This document shows, piece after piece, positions 24,173 through 33,794 of a DNA stretch of 64,000 nucleotides. The notes beneath the pieces were generated by a model. The model searched no databases. It was not told where the DNA came from and saw nothing but the letters and a program-made list of their open reading frames with translations. Source of the DNA: a candidate division WOR-3 bacterium (lineage in GTDB: Bacteria; Hydrothermota; Hydrothermia; UBA1063); assembly GCA_039803305.1 (NCBI GenBank), contig JBDRYG010000001.1:5-64004 (forward strand), in the 5' to 3' direction. How positions within the stretch are numbered: position 1 is the first letter of the stretch; every line of letters begins with the position of its first letter. The translations under genes were made by a program, and so were the position numbers.

Positions 24173-25123
24173 TTAGTAAGCTCCCGCCATCTTTTTCAAA
24201 ATTTCAATTCTCTTCTCAATGGGTGGGTGGGTACTCCACAAGGTTTTCCAGAAAGAGACTTTTTTCTTTACATCTCTCTTTGAGGGTTCAGTAAAAAATA
24301 GATGTGCAACCTGCTCCTTAACCTTCAGCTCGTATGGATAGTTTGCAATTTTTTCCAGTGCCGATGCCAAAGCAAGAGGATTCCTTGTAATCTCAACAGA
24401 ACCTGCATCGGCCAGATACTCCCTCGCACGAGAAACGGCAAGGGATAGGATCATTCCTATAAATTTGGCTATCACAAAGATCACGAACAATGCGATGGAT
24501 GCGAGGAGCCACATAAGAATTAGCTCATTCCCTTTCCTTGATCTTACCGATCTTGCTACTTGGGAAGCAACAAACAAGTTTACCTGTGCGAACACGACGA
24601 AAGCTACAAAGGTACCGAGAAGCACTGCAGTAAGCATAGCATAGAGGATGTCATAGTTTTTTATGTGAGAAATTTCATGGGCAATAACTCCCGAGAGTTC
24701 CTCTCGGCTCATCATATCCAAAAGGCCAGAAGTAACACAAATTTTACCGTTTTGGGGACTCCTGCCAGTTGCAAAAGCATTAGGGACATGAACATCCATA
24801 ACATAAATCTCTGGTTTGGGTATCCCAGCAGCAATGGAGAGTTCCTCAACTAAATTAATGAGCATTCTCTCCTTATAATTACCCGGGTTCACAGGTCTTG
24901 CACCGACTAACTTCAAAATCTTCTTATCGCCTCTTAGATAAGCTGTAATAGTACGGATAACTGCGACTGATAACAGAGATAGGGTAAAAACGGGTATCTC
25001 AGCCTTTATAGCTTTATCTAAAAATATTCCCAAGAACAAGAAAAATATAATGAGCAGTGATACTAAAACAATACTTTTTCTCTTATTCTTATTTGCAAGA
25101 GAAACAAAGTCCAGTGCAGCCAT
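24173..25123 (-). CDS. htpX: HtpX-type M48 zinc metalloprotease (paralog 1)
   Basis: HEISHIKNYD HExxH motif, N-terminal TM helices. Confidence 0.8.
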   Translation of the reverse strand: MAALDFVSLANKNKRKSIVLVSLLIIFFLFLGIFLDKAIKAEIPVFTLSLLSVAVIRTITAYLRGDKKILKLVGARPVNPGNYKERMLINLVEELSIAAGIPKPEIYVMDVHVPNAFATGRSPQNGKICVTSGLLDMMSREELSGVIAHEISHIKNYDILYAMLTAVLLGTFVAFVVFAQVNLFVASQVARSVRSRKGNELILMWLLASIALFVIFVIAKFIGMILSLAVSRAREYLADAGSVEITRNPLALASALEKIANYPYELKVKEQVAHLFFTEPSKRDVKKKVSFWKTLWSTHPPIEKRIEILKKMAGAY

Positions 25124-25138
25124 AACCTGCTCACCTCC

Positions 25139-26092
25139 TCACAAAACCCCTGCCATTTGTTTTAAAATTGCAACCCGCTTTTCTATTGGCGGATGGGTGC
25201 TCCAGAGGTTAGCCCACAGGGAATCCTTTTCGGAAAGGGAACTTTTCTTTGGATCACTGATAAAAAGGTGGGAAACGGCATCACTTACCTGCATCGGTCT
25301 TGTGTAATTGGCTATCTTCTCTAAAGCCGATGCAAGAGCTAAAGGATTCCTTGTGATACTAACAGAACCAGCGTCTGCCATATATTCCCTCGCCCTGGAA
25401 ATGGCAAGGGCCATGAGTCTCCCTATGATCGCAGCAAATATAACCACTACAAGGAGAATCAGCCACAAAAGAATTTCTCCACCTCCGCTGTCTCTATCTC
25501 TCCTTGCCCTTCTACCACCCCAGTAAAGGTTAAACCTGATAAAGTCAGCAAGAATAACAATTGCACCTACGAGAACCGCAACCATCGTCATTGTAAGTAT
25601 GTCCCTGTTTTTCACATGACTGAGCTCATGAGCCATAACCCCTTCTAATTCTTCCCGATTTAACAATTTTAAAAGCCCTGTAGTTGCGCATACCGATGCA
25701 TGCTTTGGATCCCTGCCTGTGGCAAAGGCGTTGGGAGAAGGCTCATCCATAACATAAACCTTCGGCATGGGAAGTCCAGCTGCAATACTTAGCTCCTGCA
25801 CGACATTTACAAGCTGCCTTTCTTCGTAGTCAGAAAGATTTGGTTCTCTTGCCCTGACAGACGCGAGGACAATTTTATCCCCCCAGTAATAGGACACTAA
25901 AGCCTGGAACAGCGCCAGGATTACTGCTAAAAATGTATAAAAGCCCCCGCCCCCAAAGAAATGATCGAGAAGCCTGCCAATAAGGTACAAAATCACAAAA
26001 AGGGTAAGGACTAAAAGAAATGTTCTCCTTTTATTCCTTGAAGTGATCTTTACGAAATCAAGGGCACTCATAAATAACACCTCCTTTCTCAA
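25139..26092 (-). CDS. htpX: HtpX-type M48 zinc metalloprotease (paralog 2)
   Basis: HELSHVKNRD HExxH motif; end-to-end collinear with paralog 1 (e.g. ITRNPLALASALEKIANY shared). Confidence 0.8.
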   Translation of the reverse strand: MRKEVLFMSALDFVKITSRNKRRTFLLVLTLFVILYLIGRLLDHFFGGGGFYTFLAVILALFQALVSYYWGDKIVLASVRAREPNLSDYEERQLVNVVQELSIAAGLPMPKVYVMDEPSPNAFATGRDPKHASVCATTGLLKLLNREELEGVMAHELSHVKNRDILTMTMVAVLVGAIVILADFIRFNLYWGGRRARRDRDSGGGEILLWLILLVVVIFAAIIGRLMALAISRAREYMADAGSVSITRNPLALASALEKIANYTRPMQVSDAVSHLFISDPKKSSLSEKDSLWANLWSTHPPIEKRVAILKQMAGVL

Positions 26093-26733
26093 AACTCAAC
26101 CCTAACCCCACCCCTCTCCTGGGGGAACTCAAGAAAAGACTCCAACTTAAATCCAAACATTTTTGCTACTAAATTAGAAGGAAAAGAAAGGCAAAGGGTA
26201 TTAAGCCGTCTCACACAGTCATTATAGTACTGTCTTGCATAGGCTATTCGGTTTTCAGTGCTTATTATCTCTTCCTGCAAAATCATAAAGTTCTGTGATG
26301 CTTTAAGTTCGGGATAGTTCTCCACAATAACAAGAATCCTCTTTATGATATTCGAAATGCTACCTTCAATGCTCCCCTTCTCCTTCATGTCAGTAACTGA
26401 AATTGCTCTGGTGCGTAATTCAGCGATTTTTTCGAGAAGCTCACGCTCATGTTTCATATAGCCTTTAACCGTTTCCACAAGGTTCGGGATAAGGTCGTAT
26501 CTTCTCTTGAGCTGAACATCAAGTTGAGAAAAAGCTTCCTTCACTCGCACCCTCCATCTTACCAGCGCGTTATAAGTAAGGAAAACATAAAATGTGATAC
26601 AAACTATTATGATTACCAATACATGGGTCCACTGCATAGTTAATATAATAGTCCCGTCTGCTTGATTTTTCAATATCATCTTCCTACAAATCAGTTTTAT
26701 CCCTTTCTGGTTCCAACACGCTCCTTGTAACAC
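26089..26733 (-). CDS. lemA: LemA family membrane protein; true start likely the internal Met near 26637 (MQWTHV...)
   Basis: TM helix followed by YNALVRWRVRVKEAFSQLDVQLKRRYDLIPNLV, characteristic of LemA; 4-nt overlap with the downstream htpX. Confidence 0.7.
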   Translation of the reverse strand: MLQGACWNQKGIKLICRKMILKNQADGTIILTMQWTHVLVIIIVCITFYVFLTYNALVRWRVRVKEAFSQLDVQLKRRYDLIPNLVETVKGYMKHERELLEKIAELRTRAISVTDMKEKGSIEGSISNIIKRILVIVENYPELKASQNFMILQEEIISTENRIAYARQYYNDCVRRLNTLCLSFPSNLVAKMFGFKLESFLEFPQERGGVRVEF

Positions 26734-26764
26734 CCTTACCCCTATCTTGACATTTCATCCCTGT

Positions 26765-26784
26765 AGTTATACAATTGTATAACT
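26765..26784. promoter_or_regulatory. Perfect 20-bp palindrome AGTTATACAATTGTATAACT abutting the ATG of the small-ORF/dinB operon; candidate repressor operator (SOS-type)
   Basis: Exact inverted repeat read from the sequence; lies in the divergent lemA / small-ORF-dinB intergenic region. Confidence 0.5.
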
Positions 26785-27030
26785 ATGGAAAGAGTAGACA
26801 AAAAGGTAAGCGTAGTAGCAAGATTTAACGGTAATAGTTCCGTCTACCCCCTTTATATGGAATACTCTGGATACACCGTAAAACTAAAAAAACCCGACGC
26901 CGTATGGAAGGAAAGAATAGGCAGAAACCTAATAACCCGTTTTTCTGTTTCCGACGGGGCAAATCGTTACATTATTGCCCTAAACCATGAGACGCTGGAG
27001 TGGAAACTGGAGGTCATTATAAATGAATAG
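26785..27030 (+). CDS. Small hypothetical protein (81 aa) translationally coupled to the Y-family polymerase gene
   Basis: ORF ends 8 nt inside the dinB ORF start; beta-rich composition; no recognisable motif. Confidence 0.4.
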   Translation: MERVDKKVSVVARFNGNSSVYPLYMEYSGYTVKLKKPDAVWKERIGRNLITRFSVSDGANRYIIALNHETLEWKLEVIINE

Positions 27031-28312
27031 CGGGAGAATAGAACTCGGCACAGACTCCATGGGTATTTGTGAATATTTAGACAATTTTCAGCAAGAGAGT
27101 TTTTCATCAGATAAAAACCCAAAAAGTAGAACTTTTATGCTTATTGATATGGATGCTTTCTTTGTCTCGTGCGAGGTGGCTGTTCGTCCAGAACTAAAAG
27201 GTAAACCCGTCGGCGTAGTTACCGGTGCCCAGAGACACGGTGTGGTGGCATCGGTTTCCTACGAAGGGAGGAAATATGGAATAAAGGCTGGTACACCCGT
27301 TTATAAAGCAAAAGATTTATGCCCGGAAATAATACTAATCCCGGCAGACATTGCAAAATACGCTTACATTTCAGAATCCATCATGGAGTACCTGAAAGAA
27401 AAATTCAAAAAAGTAGAGGTCTTTTCAATAGATGAAGCTTTCGTAGACATCACCGGTGAAAAAGATCCACTAAAACTTGCAACAGAAGTAAAATCTTATA
27501 TTAAAAGAACCTTCAGGGTTCCCCTCACCATAGGGATAGGTCCGTCAAGGGTAATTGCAAAGATGGCTTGTGAAATCTCTAAACCTGATGGACTTATGCA
27601 GATTAAAGCAGAAGAAATTCTTCAGAAACTCGGTCACTTGGAAGTAGATGAAATACCGGGAATAGGCCAACGGACCGGCGACGCTCTCAGGAATATGGGC
27701 ATAAGAACCATAAGAGATTTATGGGTTATTGACGAGGATACCCTAATAAGGCGCTTCGGTATCCGGGGAAAATGGTACAAAGATATGGCAATGGGGAAGG
27801 ATGCAGGTTTCTTTACCCTTCTGGACCAAGGATTGCCCTTAAAGAGTATAGGACACTCCGAAACCTTTCCGAGGGATATTATGGACCCGGAGGAAATAAA
27901 GACCTATACCCTTTACCTATCGGAAAAAGTGGGAAGAAGGCTAAGAAAGCATGAACTCATGGGATATGGCATATGGGTCTACTTGAGATACGCCGATTTT
28001 ACCGGCGATAGTATTTCAAGAAAGTTTACCAAACCCTTCTTTACCACATCGGAAATATATCGCCGAGCAATTTTCCTTATCCAGAAAATAATTGACGGGA
28101 AACCTATAAGGCTTATAGGAGTAGCGGTATTCGGGCTTAAGCCCTTAAAACCACAACTCTCGTTGTTTGAAGAGGATCTGAGAGATGTAAGACTTGATTT
28201 TGCGCTTGATAAAATCAACGATATCTATGGCGATTTTACCGTCCGCAGGGCTCGGCTTGTGGGCATTCCAGCTGTCCATCATGTAATTCCTCCAAGGGGT
28301 ATACCAAGGTAA
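27023..28312 (+). CDS. dinB: DNA polymerase IV (Y-family translesion polymerase); alternative starts at about 27059 or 27137
   Basis: FMLIDMDAFFVSCE catalytic Asp motif, SIDEAFVD, HhH region IPGIGQRTGDAL, length about 400 aa. Confidence 0.85.
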   Translation: MNSGRIELGTDSMGICEYLDNFQQESFSSDKNPKSRTFMLIDMDAFFVSCEVAVRPELKGKPVGVVTGAQRHGVVASVSYEGRKYGIKAGTPVYKAKDLCPEIILIPADIAKYAYISESIMEYLKEKFKKVEVFSIDEAFVDITGEKDPLKLATEVKSYIKRTFRVPLTIGIGPSRVIAKMACEISKPDGLMQIKAEEILQKLGHLEVDEIPGIGQRTGDALRNMGIRTIRDLWVIDEDTLIRRFGIRGKWYKDMAMGKDAGFFTLLDQGLPLKSIGHSETFPRDIMDPEEIKTYTLYLSEKVGRRLRKHELMGYGIWVYLRYADFTGDSISRKFTKPFFTTSEIYRRAIFLIQKIIDGKPIRLIGVAVFGLKPLKPQLSLFEEDLRDVRLDFALDKINDIYGDFTVRRARLVGIPAVHHVIPPRGIPR

Positions 28313-29153: not shown

Positions 29154-32100
29154 TTACTTCGCGAGTATTAGCTTACTTGTGAAAGTCTTCTTAGGAGTAA
29201 TCATCTTCACAATGTAGACTCCAGAACCTACCGCTGAACCTCTTTCGTCTTTACCATTCCATCTTACAGTATGGTAACCAGCCTCTCTGGTGCCCTTCAC
29301 AAGAGTCGCCACTTTCTGACCGGTGACAGAGTAAATGCTTATCTCCACTTCGCTTCTCTCTGGTAATGCATAAGCAAATTCAAAGCCCCTTGAAGCAGAT
29401 GAGAGACTCTTCGCATTAAACGCAAATGCCTTCGGCTTCAGATCAGTAATGGAAGTAACTTCAAAGGAAATATATCCAGTTTCCGGAAATCTTGAAGGAT
29501 TGCGCCACGCTGAATTATCAAGGGCAACGAAGTAAAGGTCTACATTATCCCCGATGTTAAGACCCGGAATCGTGTAATAATAAGTGGAACCAACTATGCT
29601 ATCATTTGTTGCAAAAGCAAAATCTGCACCATTAATGGAATAGTAAAGAGTATCACGATAAATCCCTGAAGGATCAGTAATTATAACACTTATCCAGATA
29701 TTGTTTACACCACCTGTATCATAAGCGAAGGCGGAGAACTGTGGACCAACAAAGTCAGTAGTAATACTTACCTCCGTTGAGTAAGTCATCGTATCTGGAT
29801 TTACATAATCCATCCTCACCACATAGAAGTATTGGGTTTCATGTTGAATCGTGTAGTCTGTAAATGTTATGTCACTGGTAGCACCAAGAACATCATAGGG
29901 TCCGCCAGAGGTAGTCCCCCTTAAAACCGTGTATTTTTCAATGTATTTTGTGGTACCCTCATCTTCCACTTTACCTGTAATGGCATAACGGACTAAGGCA
30001 GGGTTTCTCTTGGCATTGGAAGGTGTATGATTCGCCACATATGCTTTACTGCGTGGGAAGTAGGTAACTACACTCCTTATAATCCAGTCGAAACCAACCC
30101 AATCATACCAGGTGCTGGAAGAGGCTTCAAAATATGTGCTCCTGTTTGTATTAGATCCAGCATCACTTGTGGGATATGGTGCATTCGTAGCTGTCCACTC
30201 TATTCCAACATGATAATCACCATTTACCATTATATTGGCGGAACTTAGATCCAGCCTCAGATAATTAGGATACACGGCTGGTGAGGTTATAAGGGTATCA
30301 AAGAGGACCTCACCGGGTATTCCATTGTTGTCTGCATATATCTTTACATGGATGGGGGAAGCTGTGCCAAAAAGCAGTGCTACTACACTGTCAACCCTTG
30401 CAGGTGTATATTGAGGAGTAAATCTTACAGCAACTACATCGCCAGGATAAAATCCCGTAAAGTAGTACGCAACTCCACCGTAAATCCTCAAGCTCTGTCT
30501 TGGTCTTGCCCAGCCAAGTCTTACTCCGGGATCAGGGTCTCTCACTGCACCTATTGAAGGTGTTCCCGCATCATAAGCAATTAGTTTCCACCAGGCACCG
30601 TGTCCCTGCCACCCATTCCCGTTTACATCCCCTACAGCAAGGTAGCCATCAAAGAGAGTACCCGCAGGACGACCCGGAATTTCAACCAATATCGTATCAA
30701 TTCCCGGTTCAAAATCCTGTGAGAAGGATACTATTACAGTATCATTGACAACTGCAAATGCCTCCACACTGAATGGGGAATCATCACTAACAACAATAAT
30801 TAATGTATCTGGACCTGTATTGTAAGTATATGTGGGTGTTCTCAGAGTCTGGACCATAGGAGGTGTCGTGTCGGGTGCAAAGCTCACACTAAAGTCATCA
30901 ACCCACCAGTAGTACTCATCCCTTGCACCATAATGGAAGGCAATTCTGAAGTACTCTGCCGAGCCAATTCTGGGGATTATGTGAGGTGTTAAGTCCACCG
31001 AGCGGTATCCACTGTCGGACTCATTTGAATATTTCGCAAGTTCAATCCAGGAATTGCCGTCATCGAAGGATATTAAAACGCGGCCTGAATCTAAAGTAGA
31101 CGTTGAGTAGTCTCTATACCAGTGCCAGTAAGAAAGGGTGTATGTACCGTATCCCGGAATCCTTAACCTTGGAGAAATAAGCCAATCATTTTGGTTTTCT
31201 ACGGGTGAAAAATAGACCCTTGCAACGGTTCTCGCAGGTGTTGCTGCAACAAATCTGTGCCAGTCATTATTGTTTACCGTAGGAACTCCCTCATCACCAC
31301 CGTCAATTATTTTCCAGCCTCCAAATGGAGGATTTATGGAGTTCTCCCATGCTTCGTCAAAGTTATGGGCATATGGCAAATCTTGAGCATAGGGCCAGAC
31401 ATACAGGGTAGTTGATACAGTATCATTTTCAGGAATTGCATCTCCTGCTAATTCAACTCCAGCATAAAGAGTAATTAAGCCAGTATCTGGTGGAACAAGA
31501 GGCTCCTGGAAATTATAGGTCATAATCATTCCTGCAGGTAAATTCCCCGTCCAGGTCTCAAAAACCGTGTCCACACCACCAAGGGTGTAAAACAGAGTAA
31601 GGGAAGTAATTGGATTCAATCCGGAGTTTTTGAGAGTTATAGAGACTGAATTATTATCACCCTGAATTACAGGTTTGGGAACATTTACAGAAAGAATCTG
31701 GGCATCAGTATCAGCAGCTGTGGGTTCAGTTACAAATACCCTGACGGAATCAATATACATGTTATTACCATAAGCACTTTTCGCTCTAAAAGCCACATAA
31801 AGCTGTGTTCCACCCAGAAAGTCGCCAATCTCAACCTCCTCCGGTGCCCAACCTGCGGTAGCACTGTATCTCTGATACCCCTGCAGTGTTGTAAAGTTAG
31901 TTCCATCAAGAGAGTATTCAACATATATGGAGTCATAACTTGTTGAGTATCCGGGGTCATGGTACATGTAGAACCTCAACTTAACTTTTCTTGAAACAGG
32001 ACCGACATTTATTACTGAGGTTATGAGGCGGGCTTGGGAACCTGCACTTGCATTGTAAGATGGATATCCAGCCATAGCGGGCGCATCAAGGGGCGTGCAA

Positions 32101-33794
32101 GTGGGGTTAGAACCTGAGGTATATCTCCCCCAGTTGTAGGAACCGCTTATTATCTGCCTTGTCCATCCAAGAGGTGGGAAATCTGGTGGAAAGAATGTGG
32201 ATGCAGCTACGGTAGAATCATCCCATAATTCAACATATAGTTTAGCTGTATTATTGTTATGGTAATCATCAGGATAAACTCCTACCTGTAAGGTATCAAA
32301 GCCAAGATTGGAAAAATAAATGTGTACCGGCATTGAGACCACAGCGTATTCGCCGGGATTTAATGCCACAGGATATGAAAAACCTTGAGATGCACCCACA
32401 TTTACAAATGCATAACCTAAATCAACCGAGGAGACGGGTGTATTTCCCGAGTTAACAACCACAACATAGATCGAATCTGTAACACCGCGTTTTAATACAG
32501 GAGCAATTCTTCTAGCATCTAAAACACATAGGTCAGAGTTAAATATTCTTTGTTCCATTTCCACAATGTGTCCACCGCAGGTAAGCACAAGCTCATTACC
32601 AGGTCTCCAACGGTTTACATCCGCAATCTTGACACCGTAATCGGCAGCTTCAGCAATCTTGGGTAAAATCCCAACAAGTGGCCTTCCAAAAGGAGAGTAG
32701 GCAAACCAGAGGGAAAAGCTAGTATTAGTAGTTCCTGTATTTGTTAGGACAACTTCTTGTCCTGGAATTTCTCTAAGGAAATCCCCTATTTCTATTTCAT
32801 TATTTCCCGCTATTCCCCAGGTGCTGTAAAGTGCATAGGCAACTCCGGAAAATGCACTTCCCGTCCAGTTCCATACCGAAAGCTGATAGGAAGTAGAGCC
32901 GTGCACAATGCAAACCTCAGGCCCAGGCATTGCGGGATTTATGTCGCCAATGGCGATATCATTGACACTCGAAAGCCCCGTATATATAGTTTGAGTCTGC
33001 CACGAAGTTCCATTCCAGTAAGCCATGGCAAAATCTGACCCACCACCAGTATAAACTTCATTTCCAGGTAAATCAGGATTTACATCCCCTATTGCAACTG
33101 CTCTATATCTCTGTGTCCTTCCCGTAAATGTTACCCTGACTGTATCAAAGGATGTCCCATTCCACTTGGCGATCATGAAGGCGGAAGGATTATTATTTGC
33201 CACGTTAAATACAATATCCCTTGCTACACCATCGTTGTCCGCATCGCCTATTACAATATTATTGATATAATCTCCAGAACCTACTCCAATACTATCCCTC
33301 GCCACCCAGTTAACCGCCCCAGGATCCCATTCAAACCAGCGAAGCCATATTTTTCCGGCAACAGCAGCATTATCCGCAGTCAAAATATCGGTATACTCGT
33401 CTCCATCCACATCCCCGATACATACCGCATGCTCTGTAGCGCCCGATGGGAAGGAATATGGAGTTTCTATCCTGAACTTCCTCGTTCCAAAAGCCACACT
33501 TGAGGTGTCAGTAGCAATAATTAAATACCTTGTTCCACCACTTTGAACCGATACAACCCTTATAGTATCGTCACTTAAGCCCTTAAATTGTGTCCCTACA
33601 GCTACCTGTCTCGTTAGGTTTGCTGAAGAACCATAGAATATATAGTTTGTATCAATCAAAGGAGCAGGAACCTTGGACATACTGCCCACCCATATAGGGG
33701 TTTCAACAGGTATGGGGGGCACATCATCAACCTTTGCTTTCTGGGCAGTTGCCATACCCAGAAGCAATATCAACACTATAAACCCTTTAGGCAT
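29154..33794 (-). CDS. Very large secreted protein with FG-GAP/integrin-alpha-like beta-propeller repeats, multiple beta-sandwich domains and a T9SS C-terminal sorting domain
   Basis: Signal peptide MPKGFIVLILLLGMATAQ; repeated xIGDVDGDxxxD / IGDADNDG / IGDVNPDLPGNEV / IGDINPAMPGPEV calcium-binding-like FG-GAP motifs; tail EISIYSVTGQKVATL...GVYIVKM. Confidence 0.6.
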   Translation of the reverse strand: MPKGFIVLILLLGMATAQKAKVDDVPPIPVETPIWVGSMSKVPAPLIDTNYIFYGSSANLTRQVAVGTQFKGLSDDTIRVVSVQSGGTRYLIIATDTSSVAFGTRKFRIETPYSFPSGATEHAVCIGDVDGDEYTDILTADNAAVAGKIWLRWFEWDPGAVNWVARDSIGVGSGDYINNIVIGDADNDGVARDIVFNVANNNPSAFMIAKWNGTSFDTVRVTFTGRTQRYRAVAIGDVNPDLPGNEVYTGGGSDFAMAYWNGTSWQTQTIYTGLSSVNDIAIGDINPAMPGPEVCIVHGSTSYQLSVWNWTGSAFSGVAYALYSTWGIAGNNEIEIGDFLREIPGQEVVLTNTGTTNTSFSLWFAYSPFGRPLVGILPKIAEAADYGVKIADVNRWRPGNELVLTCGGHIVEMEQRIFNSDLCVLDARRIAPVLKRGVTDSIYVVVVNSGNTPVSSVDLGYAFVNVGASQGFSYPVALNPGEYAVVSMPVHIYFSNLGFDTLQVGVYPDDYHNNNTAKLYVELWDDSTVAASTFFPPDFPPLGWTRQIISGSYNWGRYTSGSNPTCTPLDAPAMAGYPSYNASAGSQARLITSVINVGPVSRKVKLRFYMYHDPGYSTSYDSIYVEYSLDGTNFTTLQGYQRYSATAGWAPEEVEIGDFLGGTQLYVAFRAKSAYGNNMYIDSVRVFVTEPTAADTDAQILSVNVPKPVIQGDNNSVSITLKNSGLNPITSLTLFYTLGGVDTVFETWTGNLPAGMIMTYNFQEPLVPPDTGLITLYAGVELAGDAIPENDTVSTTLYVWPYAQDLPYAHNFDEAWENSINPPFGGWKIIDGGDEGVPTVNNNDWHRFVAATPARTVARVYFSPVENQNDWLISPRLRIPGYGTYTLSYWHWYRDYSTSTLDSGRVLISFDDGNSWIELAKYSNESDSGYRSVDLTPHIIPRIGSAEYFRIAFHYGARDEYYWWVDDFSVSFAPDTTPPMVQTLRTPTYTYNTGPDTLIIVVSDDSPFSVEAFAVVNDTVIVSFSQDFEPGIDTILVEIPGRPAGTLFDGYLAVGDVNGNGWQGHGAWWKLIAYDAGTPSIGAVRDPDPGVRLGWARPRQSLRIYGGVAYYFTGFYPGDVVAVRFTPQYTPARVDSVVALLFGTASPIHVKIYADNNGIPGEVLFDTLITSPAVYPNYLRLDLSSANIMVNGDYHVGIEWTATNAPYPTSDAGSNTNRSTYFEASSSTWYDWVGFDWIIRSVVTYFPRSKAYVANHTPSNAKRNPALVRYAITGKVEDEGTTKYIEKYTVLRGTTSGGPYDVLGATSDITFTDYTIQHETQYFYVVRMDYVNPDTMTYSTEVSITTDFVGPQFSAFAYDTGGVNNIWISVIITDPSGIYRDTLYYSINGADFAFATNDSIVGSTYYYTIPGLNIGDNVDLYFVALDNSAWRNPSRFPETGYISFEVTSITDLKPKAFAFNAKSLSSASRGFEFAYALPERSEVEISIYSVTGQKVATLVKGTREAGYHTVRWNGKDERGSAVGSGVYIVKMITPKKTFTSKLILAK

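Follow-up and report, generated by a model that had tools for sequence, protein, structure and literature searches.

Standalone ImuB-C proteins were described as a family in 2013, with Geobacter GSU0042 as the type member; they are encoded most often with DinB and often with LexA, and are defined by a conserved C-terminal Trp together with the basic residue of a W..R.G motif (PMC3765255). Studies from 2019 and 2026 placed the standalone ImuB-C within a PolY-ImuB-C-RecA module (PMC6511836, PMC12926913). Timinskas and Venclovas described lexA-imuB-C-polY operons in which an active, 'GeoPolY-like' polymerase bears a RecA-NT motif (PMC6511836), and the Geobacter operon of this kind is, as cited in that paper, co-transcribed and damage-induced. 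Their 2026 survey lists PolY-ImuB-C-RecA as one among 11 predicted mutasome types and describes ImuB-C as a beta-barrel with a fold absent from the PDB (PMC12926913). AlphaFold-Multimer models of the Geobacter and Calditerrivibrio PolY-ImuB-C-RecA complexes reached ipTM values of 0.83-0.84 (PMC12926913, supplementary data file 4).

Here we analyse a gene pair in DNA from a candidate division WOR-3 bacterium of the Hydrothermia; by the window we mean the whole stretch of 64,000 nucleotides that was analysed. A sequence-only reading of the window had pointed to a beta-rich 81-aa ORF overlapping the annotated dinB start by 8 nt, and had proposed it as a translationally coupled partner of the Y-family polymerase. 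The features discussed below are collected in Table 1.

Table 1. Features of the imuB-C-polY locus, in window positions
Feature	Position	Strand	Description
Sigma-70-type promoter	26747..26775	+	TTGACA 26747-26752, 17-nt spacer, TACAAT 26770-26775
22-bp palindrome TAGTTATACAATTGTATAACTA	26764..26785	.	Two 11-nt arms, 100% complementary, no gap; probable operator of a LexA-type repressor
14-bp palindrome core TATACAATTGTATA	26768-26781		TATAC-N4-GTATA; overlaps the -10 element
imuB-C	26785..27030	+	81-aa standalone ImuB-C (GSU0042-like) by sequence; ATG start, TAG stop 27028-27030, no Shine-Dalgarno sequence
GGAGG Shine-Dalgarno of the polymerase gene	27009..27013	+	Within the end of imuB-C (WKLE codons), 9 nt before ATG 27023
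Stop/start overlap ATGAATAG	27023..27030	+	8 nt, imuB-C TAG inside the polymerase ORF; putative translational coupling junction
polY (annotated dinB)	27023..28312	+	429-aa Y-family polymerase, GeoPolY-like
Polymerase N-terminal extension	27026..27136	+	Residues 2-38; lineage-specific, poorly conserved
QLSLF beta-clamp-binding motif	28154..28168	+	Residues 378-382; aligned to QLPLF of Geobacter PolY and QLNLF of E. coli UmuC
RecA-NT-like motif RLDFALDKINDIYGDFTVRRARL	28190..28258	+	Residues 390-412; motif as defined in PMC6511836
Extreme C-terminal tail VIPPRGIPR	28283..28309	+	Identical in five WOR-3 polymerases

Identity of the 81-aa protein

The ORF proved to be as the sequence-only reading had described it in coordinates, sequence and overlap. 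Eight close homologues from WOR-3 / Candidatus Hydrothermia, each exactly 81 aa long and 69-86% identical, came from a word-indexed search that covered 5.8 billion proteins, and phmmer, run exhaustively over 1.84 billion cluster representatives, returned 34 family proteins at E<=0.001. Nearly all of the latter measure 78-110 aa, typically about 82 aa, with 26-38% identity to the window protein. One phmmer match, P0018 (703 aa), is a BTRD1-repeat protein and was discarded as a false positive. Between the window gene and its relatives, third codon positions hold 42-55 of the 62-82 nucleotide differences; dN ranges from 0.12 to 0.20, dS is saturated, and dN/dS, where calculable, is 0.07-0.10. This substitution pattern is that of a gene under strong purifying selection. 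Since homologues of fixed length, third-position bias and low dN/dS are found together, the 81-aa ORF is, on these comparisons, a genuine gene and no chance ORF.

The AlphaFold2 model of the window protein, computed with 34 family members as input, shows an all-beta fold of seven strands, free of helix (mean pLDDT 95.2, pTM 0.82), which agrees with the description of the product as beta-rich. Scans of Pfam and NCBIfam gave no match for the window protein at E<=1, enzyme families included. The family's C-terminal Trp corresponds to W73, invariant in 34/34 family sequences. At the basic position of W..R.G (R44) most family sequences have Arg or Lys, and the protein, which has a further basic cluster at residues 33-36, is mildly basic.

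Using the GSU0042 sequence (AAR33377) given in the supplementary table of PMC12926913, BLASTP aligned the window protein with the type member at E 6e-15 (29% identity over 76 residues, ungapped), and the Calditerrivibrio ImuB-C (ADR18603) was matched at E 2e-9. The homology is collinear, the window protein having 81 aa against 82, and the motifs V.V.A.F, W..R.G, F.V.DG and a C-terminal W.L are common to the window protein and the GSU0042-type ImuB-C. The family profile also matched the lexA-adjacent 84-aa protein of Geobacter anodireducens with 99.4% probability (hhalign, E 1.7e-21). By these sequence matches the 81-aa protein is a standalone ImuB-C and an orthologue-level relative of Geobacter GSU0042.

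The relation to Pfam is less direct. DUF6504 (PF20114; gathering cut-off 24.2 bits) matches 20 of the 34 family members, and two of these, P0017 (27.9 bits) and P0037 (24.4 bits), score above that cut-off. The window protein, unmatched by DUF6504 at E<=1, is a divergent outlier to the model and no formal Pfam member. For comparison we took the genuine ImuB genes, two in all, of imuA-imuB-dnaE2 cassettes carried by plasmids of Rhizobium and Burkholderia. DUF6504 falls on residues 428-500 of the Rhizobium ImuB at 24.1 bits, just below the 24.2 cut-off (E 4.5e-5), and the family profile met the two ImuB C-termini at E 2.3e-4 with a probability of only 44% (hhalign), a statistically weak match. 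The direct link between the family and the ImuB C-terminus is about as weak as that reported in 2013, and rests partly on transitivity. A literature search on DUF6504 / PF20114 found nothing relevant.

Seen against these results, the first interpretation of the ORF was correct in part. It had taken the product for a small accessory factor that works with the Y-family polymerase, and had set UmuD aside on the ground that the protein has no S24 peptidase Ser-Lys dyad. Both points are supported; the 81-aa all-beta protein shows neither a PF00717 match nor such a motif. The further suggestions, that it was YolD-like or novel, are not. An HMM check found no YolD match (PF08863) at E<=1 for the window protein or any of its 34 relatives, and the S24 profile likewise matched no member of this set. 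The family is a known one and not a novel accessory factor; the window protein is a divergent example of it, below the Pfam threshold and from a lineage outside the published surveys.

Conservation of the gene pair

In every locus examined the small gene stands directly upstream of an IMS gene. The pair occurs in five or more WOR-3/Hydrothermia lineages, in Patescibacteria, in unassigned metagenomic contigs and in Geobacter. The close-family loci (L001-L009 and L021-L026) represent at least five species-level lineages, and the related-locus search that used a narrow alignment comprised four species. It had been reasoned that the partnership would be doubtful if relatives lacked the small ORF next to dinB; because the pair is conserved beside a dinB-type gene throughout the loci examined, this is clearly not the case.

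The junction between the two genes is similarly kept. An ATGA[AG]TA[AG] junction is present in L001, L002, L005 and L022-L025, and GTGAATAA in L009/L026. Among the distant loci the genes either overlap by 4 nt (ATGA or GTGA) or have the stop 2-17 nt from the polymerase start; L010, L012 and L014 show the 4-nt ATGA overlap and L013 a 2-nt gap.

Genomic context was recovered for seven more distant members. Five have the order lexA - small gene - IMS (L010/L011, L012, L013, L027 and L028, of which L013 is a named Patescibacteria locus), L014 has the small gene - IMS pair, and L015, on plasmid pSD of Geobacter anodireducens, has lexA - 84-aa gene - polY with the polymerase frameshifted. A lexA gene ahead of the small gene, as in L010, L012, L013, L015, L027 and L028, is the usual arrangement outside Hydrothermia. 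The plasmid polymerase (L015 3749-4977) consists of two ORFs of 288 and 128 aa, is absent from the plasmid's gene table; it is probably either a pseudogene or the product of a sequencing error.

Neighbouring genes vary among the close loci, with gatB upstream in some, and lemA and an M48 peptidase gene in others. In the window, two tandem M48 (HtpX-like) paralogues of 316 and 317 aa (24173-26733, minus strand) lie downstream of a LemA gene and are divergent from the imuB-C promoter; a single M48 gene occupies this place in L009 and L025. At 29154-33794 the minus strand encodes a 1546-aa secreted-type protein, unrelated to imuB-C-polY, whose L009 counterpart has a FlgD_ig Pfam match.

The partner polymerase and its start codon

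The polymerase has the Pfam domains IMS (4.9e-43), IMS_C (2.1e-23) and IMS_HHH (3.1e-06), and its best NCBIfam models are those of DNA polymerase IV. It aligns with Geobacter sulfurreducens PolY (AAR33378) at E 1e-80, with 36% identity over 383 aa, tail included. The catalytic motifs DMDAFF and SIDEAF are present, and from its sequence the enzyme appears catalytically active. A profile of nine polymerase tails matched, in register, the tail of E. coli UmuC at E 0.0025 and the N-terminus of RecA at E 0.0036; the statistics are weak and the motif short. Pfam DUF4113 was undetected in the polymerase by profile scan. At the extreme C-terminus, IPPR is found in the L010/L012 polymerases and a VISPAWRPDGIR-type tail in those of Geobacter and Calditerrivibrio; the VIPPRGIPR tail of the window polymerase may serve as a docking peptide.

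An alternative had been raised in which the polymerase starts downstream, at 27059 or 27137, leaving a short spacer after the small ORF. We favour the overlapping ATG at 27023 as the most likely start, because it has GGAGG at 9 nt, because the Met39-equivalent is Leu in L001 and L005, where the overlapping start is the only option, because ATG 27059 is ATT in the closest relative, L025, and because ..PRQRT of Geobacter PolY aligns with ..PKSRT of the window polymerase just ahead of the core. GGAG(G) is found at the equivalent place in L001, L005, L009, L022, L023, L025 and L026.

The start at 27023 gives the window polymerase an N-terminal extension that has the same length in L025, is 13 aa long in L009/L026 and is absent in L001/L005. 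Between L025 and the window the frame of the extension is open, with 16/38 residues identical and differences of 14/12/14 by codon position; the remainder of the protein is 92% identical. The extension contains neither repeat nor mobile element and has no similarity elsewhere. By its substitutions the 38-residue extension is a segment that evolves almost neutrally, and it is probably a weakly constrained, disordered tail. This near-neutrality leaves a downstream start some likelihood, and a start at 27137 instead of 27023 is disfavoured by the sequence comparison as a whole.

Promoter and palindrome

The promoter upstream of imuB-C agrees with the consensus at 11/12 positions and is the top-scoring site in the region, and its -35 element and spacing are kept in L001-L009, L021-L023, L025 and L026. 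In the window and related operons the first ATG lies 9 nt past the -10 element and is preceded by no Shine-Dalgarno sequence, and for these two reasons the imuB-C mRNA is probably leaderless or near-leaderless.

The core of the palindrome that overlaps this promoter is invariant in every WOR-3 locus except L024, with a single copy per locus and a single copy in the 64-kb window. Boxes of the same type occur in the operons that encode LexA. In the lexA-imuB-C-polY operons L010, L027 and L028, AGTATACAAATGTATACT (TATAC-N4-GTATA) follows the -10 element and spans the lexA start codon, and in L012 a AGTAAACAAATGTTTACC box (TAAAC-N4-GTTTA) is likewise placed on the lexA start. A box of the form TAWAC-N4-GTWTA is found at or just past the -10 of the clade's imuB-C operon promoters (window 26747-26787; L010 60-110; L012 3375-3405; L027 240-290; L028 2040-2090), L024 being without the palindrome. 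Relaxed box searches of the 64-kb window gave matches at chance level, and the sole other ATAC-N4-GTAT site (50325) is inside a coding region. A literature search on the box sequence found nothing relevant.

LexA is typically autoregulated, and LexA boxes of Gram-positive bacteria have the form xxAC-N4-GTxx. Given this form, LexA autoregulation and the presence of the same box type on lexA starts, the palindrome is most simply a LexA box. It seems likely that it is a LexA-type box and that the operon is under SOS-type control, in which case the window operon would be a probable SOS gene pair. Neither lexA nor recA came up in the window or the WOR-3 loci when these were searched by tblastn with E. 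coli RecA and three LexAs. When the L010 LexA was searched against the database, no WOR-3 appeared among the matches with an organism name; most matches had none.

Three further observations concern this region. In L024 (WOR-3 bacterium UBA1063, positions 1-110) the contig begins 106 nt upstream, the imuB-C-polY overlap is kept, and the palindrome is replaced by a GC-rich hairpin together with a TATAAT placed directly against the ATG. In L012 and L027 gene callers place the lexA start elsewhere. Just past the -35 element, the sequence CTTGACAxTTCAyCCC (window 26745-26762) is common to the WOR-3 imuB-C promoters (L009, L026) and the L027 lexA promoter, and may reflect common promoter ancestry or a second conserved element.

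Discussion

Taken together, the sequence evidence and the analogy with described systems make it probable that imuB-C-polY is a two-gene, damage-inducible translesion-synthesis operon, and that ImuB-C is a non-catalytic subunit of a PolY-ImuB-C-RecA mutasome. Under this model a repressor, most likely LexA, would sit on TATAC-N4-GTATA over the -10 element and keep the operon off. Upon DNA damage the repressor would leave, and a leaderless transcript would start at or within ~3 nt of the imuB-C ATG. Ribosomes would finish ImuB-C at its TAG and, aided by GGAGG, start the polymerase at ATG 27023; with termination inside the polymerase gene and restart at 27023, we propose that both proteins are made together. 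The small beta-barrel would then bind the polymerase as a non-catalytic subunit, and the polymerase would hold RecA through its RecA-NT-like tail and the sliding clamp through QLSLF. The outcome would amount to a 'split ImuB' whose polymerase is active, with a function like that of UmuD'2C-RecA. For the putative complex with polymerase and RecA, and for its function, we draw on structure predictions made by others for the orthologues. The contribution of ImuB-C to the polymerase might be regulation, recruitment, bridging to RecA or lesion sensing.

The system closest to the window operon is that of Geobacter. In both, the small gene is upstream of and overlaps the gene of an active-type Y-family polymerase, the two polymerases being 36% identical, and both polymerases have a clamp motif and a RecA-NT or RecA-NT-like tail. 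In contrast to Geobacter, the Hydrothermia operon lacks lexA, its operator is TATAC-N4-GTATA and not a GGTT-type LexA box, its first gene is probably leaderless, its polymerase has the extra, poorly conserved 38-residue extension, and its small protein falls below the Pfam DUF6504 threshold.

The comparison extends to the ImuA-ImuB-DnaE2 mutasome. [quoted passage not shown] ImuB itself has the domain joined to a catalytically dead polymerase, and in models the domain holds DnaE2 (PHP domain) and ImuA, whereas in the window it is a separate protein beside an active-type polymerase, with neither dnaE2 nor imuA near the genes. UmuD'/UmuC (Pol V), and YolD/YqjX with UvrX/YqjW, follow the same operon logic: the gene of a small non-catalytic protein immediately precedes, and overlaps, that of a damage-inducible Y-family polymerase with a RecA-NT motif. 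The role of ImuB-C is probably analogous to that of those partners. Their folds and sequences are unrelated to it: the window protein has neither the S24 peptidase domain and self-cleavage switch of UmuD' nor the SH3-type barrel and N-terminal arm of YolD/YqjX.

Another explanation would make the small protein an analogue of YolD/YqjX or UmuD, an SH3-type barrel whose N-terminal arm inserts into the polymerase. Its all-beta structure, and a position and size class like those of yolD/yqjX and umuD upstream of their polymerases, would suit such a protein; with no PF08863 or S24 match anywhere in the family the idea is largely refuted, and we regard it as very improbable. Still less credible is that the ORF is a mere translated leader which brings ribosomes to the polymerase start and has a functionless product. 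A stop/start overlap and a Shine-Dalgarno sequence within the last codons of the ORF are what a leader would have, but the dN/dS of 0.07-0.10 extends across the whole ORF, the length is fixed at 81 aa, the fold is globular and confidently predicted, homologues at 23-38% identity are spread across phyla, and other bacteria carry the domain as a fused part of ImuB. This conservation pattern refutes the idea that the ORF is a leader and nothing more.

A more serious competitor, which we nevertheless judge unlikely, is that the small protein acts mainly by binding DNA and forms no stable complex with the polymerase, either as a damage sensor guiding repair enzymes or, in an operon without lexA, as an autoregulator that binds the palindrome. 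ImuB-C was proposed in 2013 to be a DNA-binding, damage-recognising domain, and it also neighbours Ku/ligase, SplB and SRAP genes at sites that have no polymerase (PMC3765255). The mildly basic character of the protein and its conserved basic residues fit this proposal, as do the palindrome, which is always at an operon containing imuB-C, and the failure to find LexA for WOR-3 in the window, in the WOR-3 loci or among the named matches. The best match of the family profile to PDB sequences, a Sac7d-derived affitin, is a faint resemblance to a DNA-binding scaffold, but is non-significant (E 0.18). Against an autoregulatory ImuB-C, in four operons that encode LexA, itself a known autoregulator, the box lies over the start codon of lexA, and it has the Gram-positive LexA form. 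The tight stop/start overlap across phyla and the published high-ipTM complex models fit a polymerase subunit better.

The regulation could still hold something new, although we give this only a slim chance. The box, which several uncultured lexA-imuB-C-polY operons share, could be an undescribed LexA-box variant on leaderless transcripts, the Hydrothermia pair having been separated from lexA; or, if these ~1-Mb genomes are truly without LexA, it could be read by another factor, conceivably ImuB-C itself. If ImuB-C does read the box, it would have a sequence-specific DNA-binding, autoregulatory role that has so far been proposed by nobody.

As a polymerase subunit, the favoured reading, the window protein is an ordinary further example of its family in a little-studied bacterial lineage, with some novelty only in the operator and the missing repressor. 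Its identification corrects the 'hypothetical protein' annotation of the 81-aa gene and adds WOR-3/Hydrothermia, a candidate lineage of thermophiles with small genomes, and Patescibacteria-type contigs to the range of the PolY-ImuB-C-RecA type module. With a fold predicted at high confidence, a tight junction and a clean promoter and operator, this compact thermophile operon could conveniently supply stable proteins for a first biochemical or structural study of the putative mutasome subunit. The shared palindrome, in turn, provides a candidate LexA box for lineages without a described SOS regulon.
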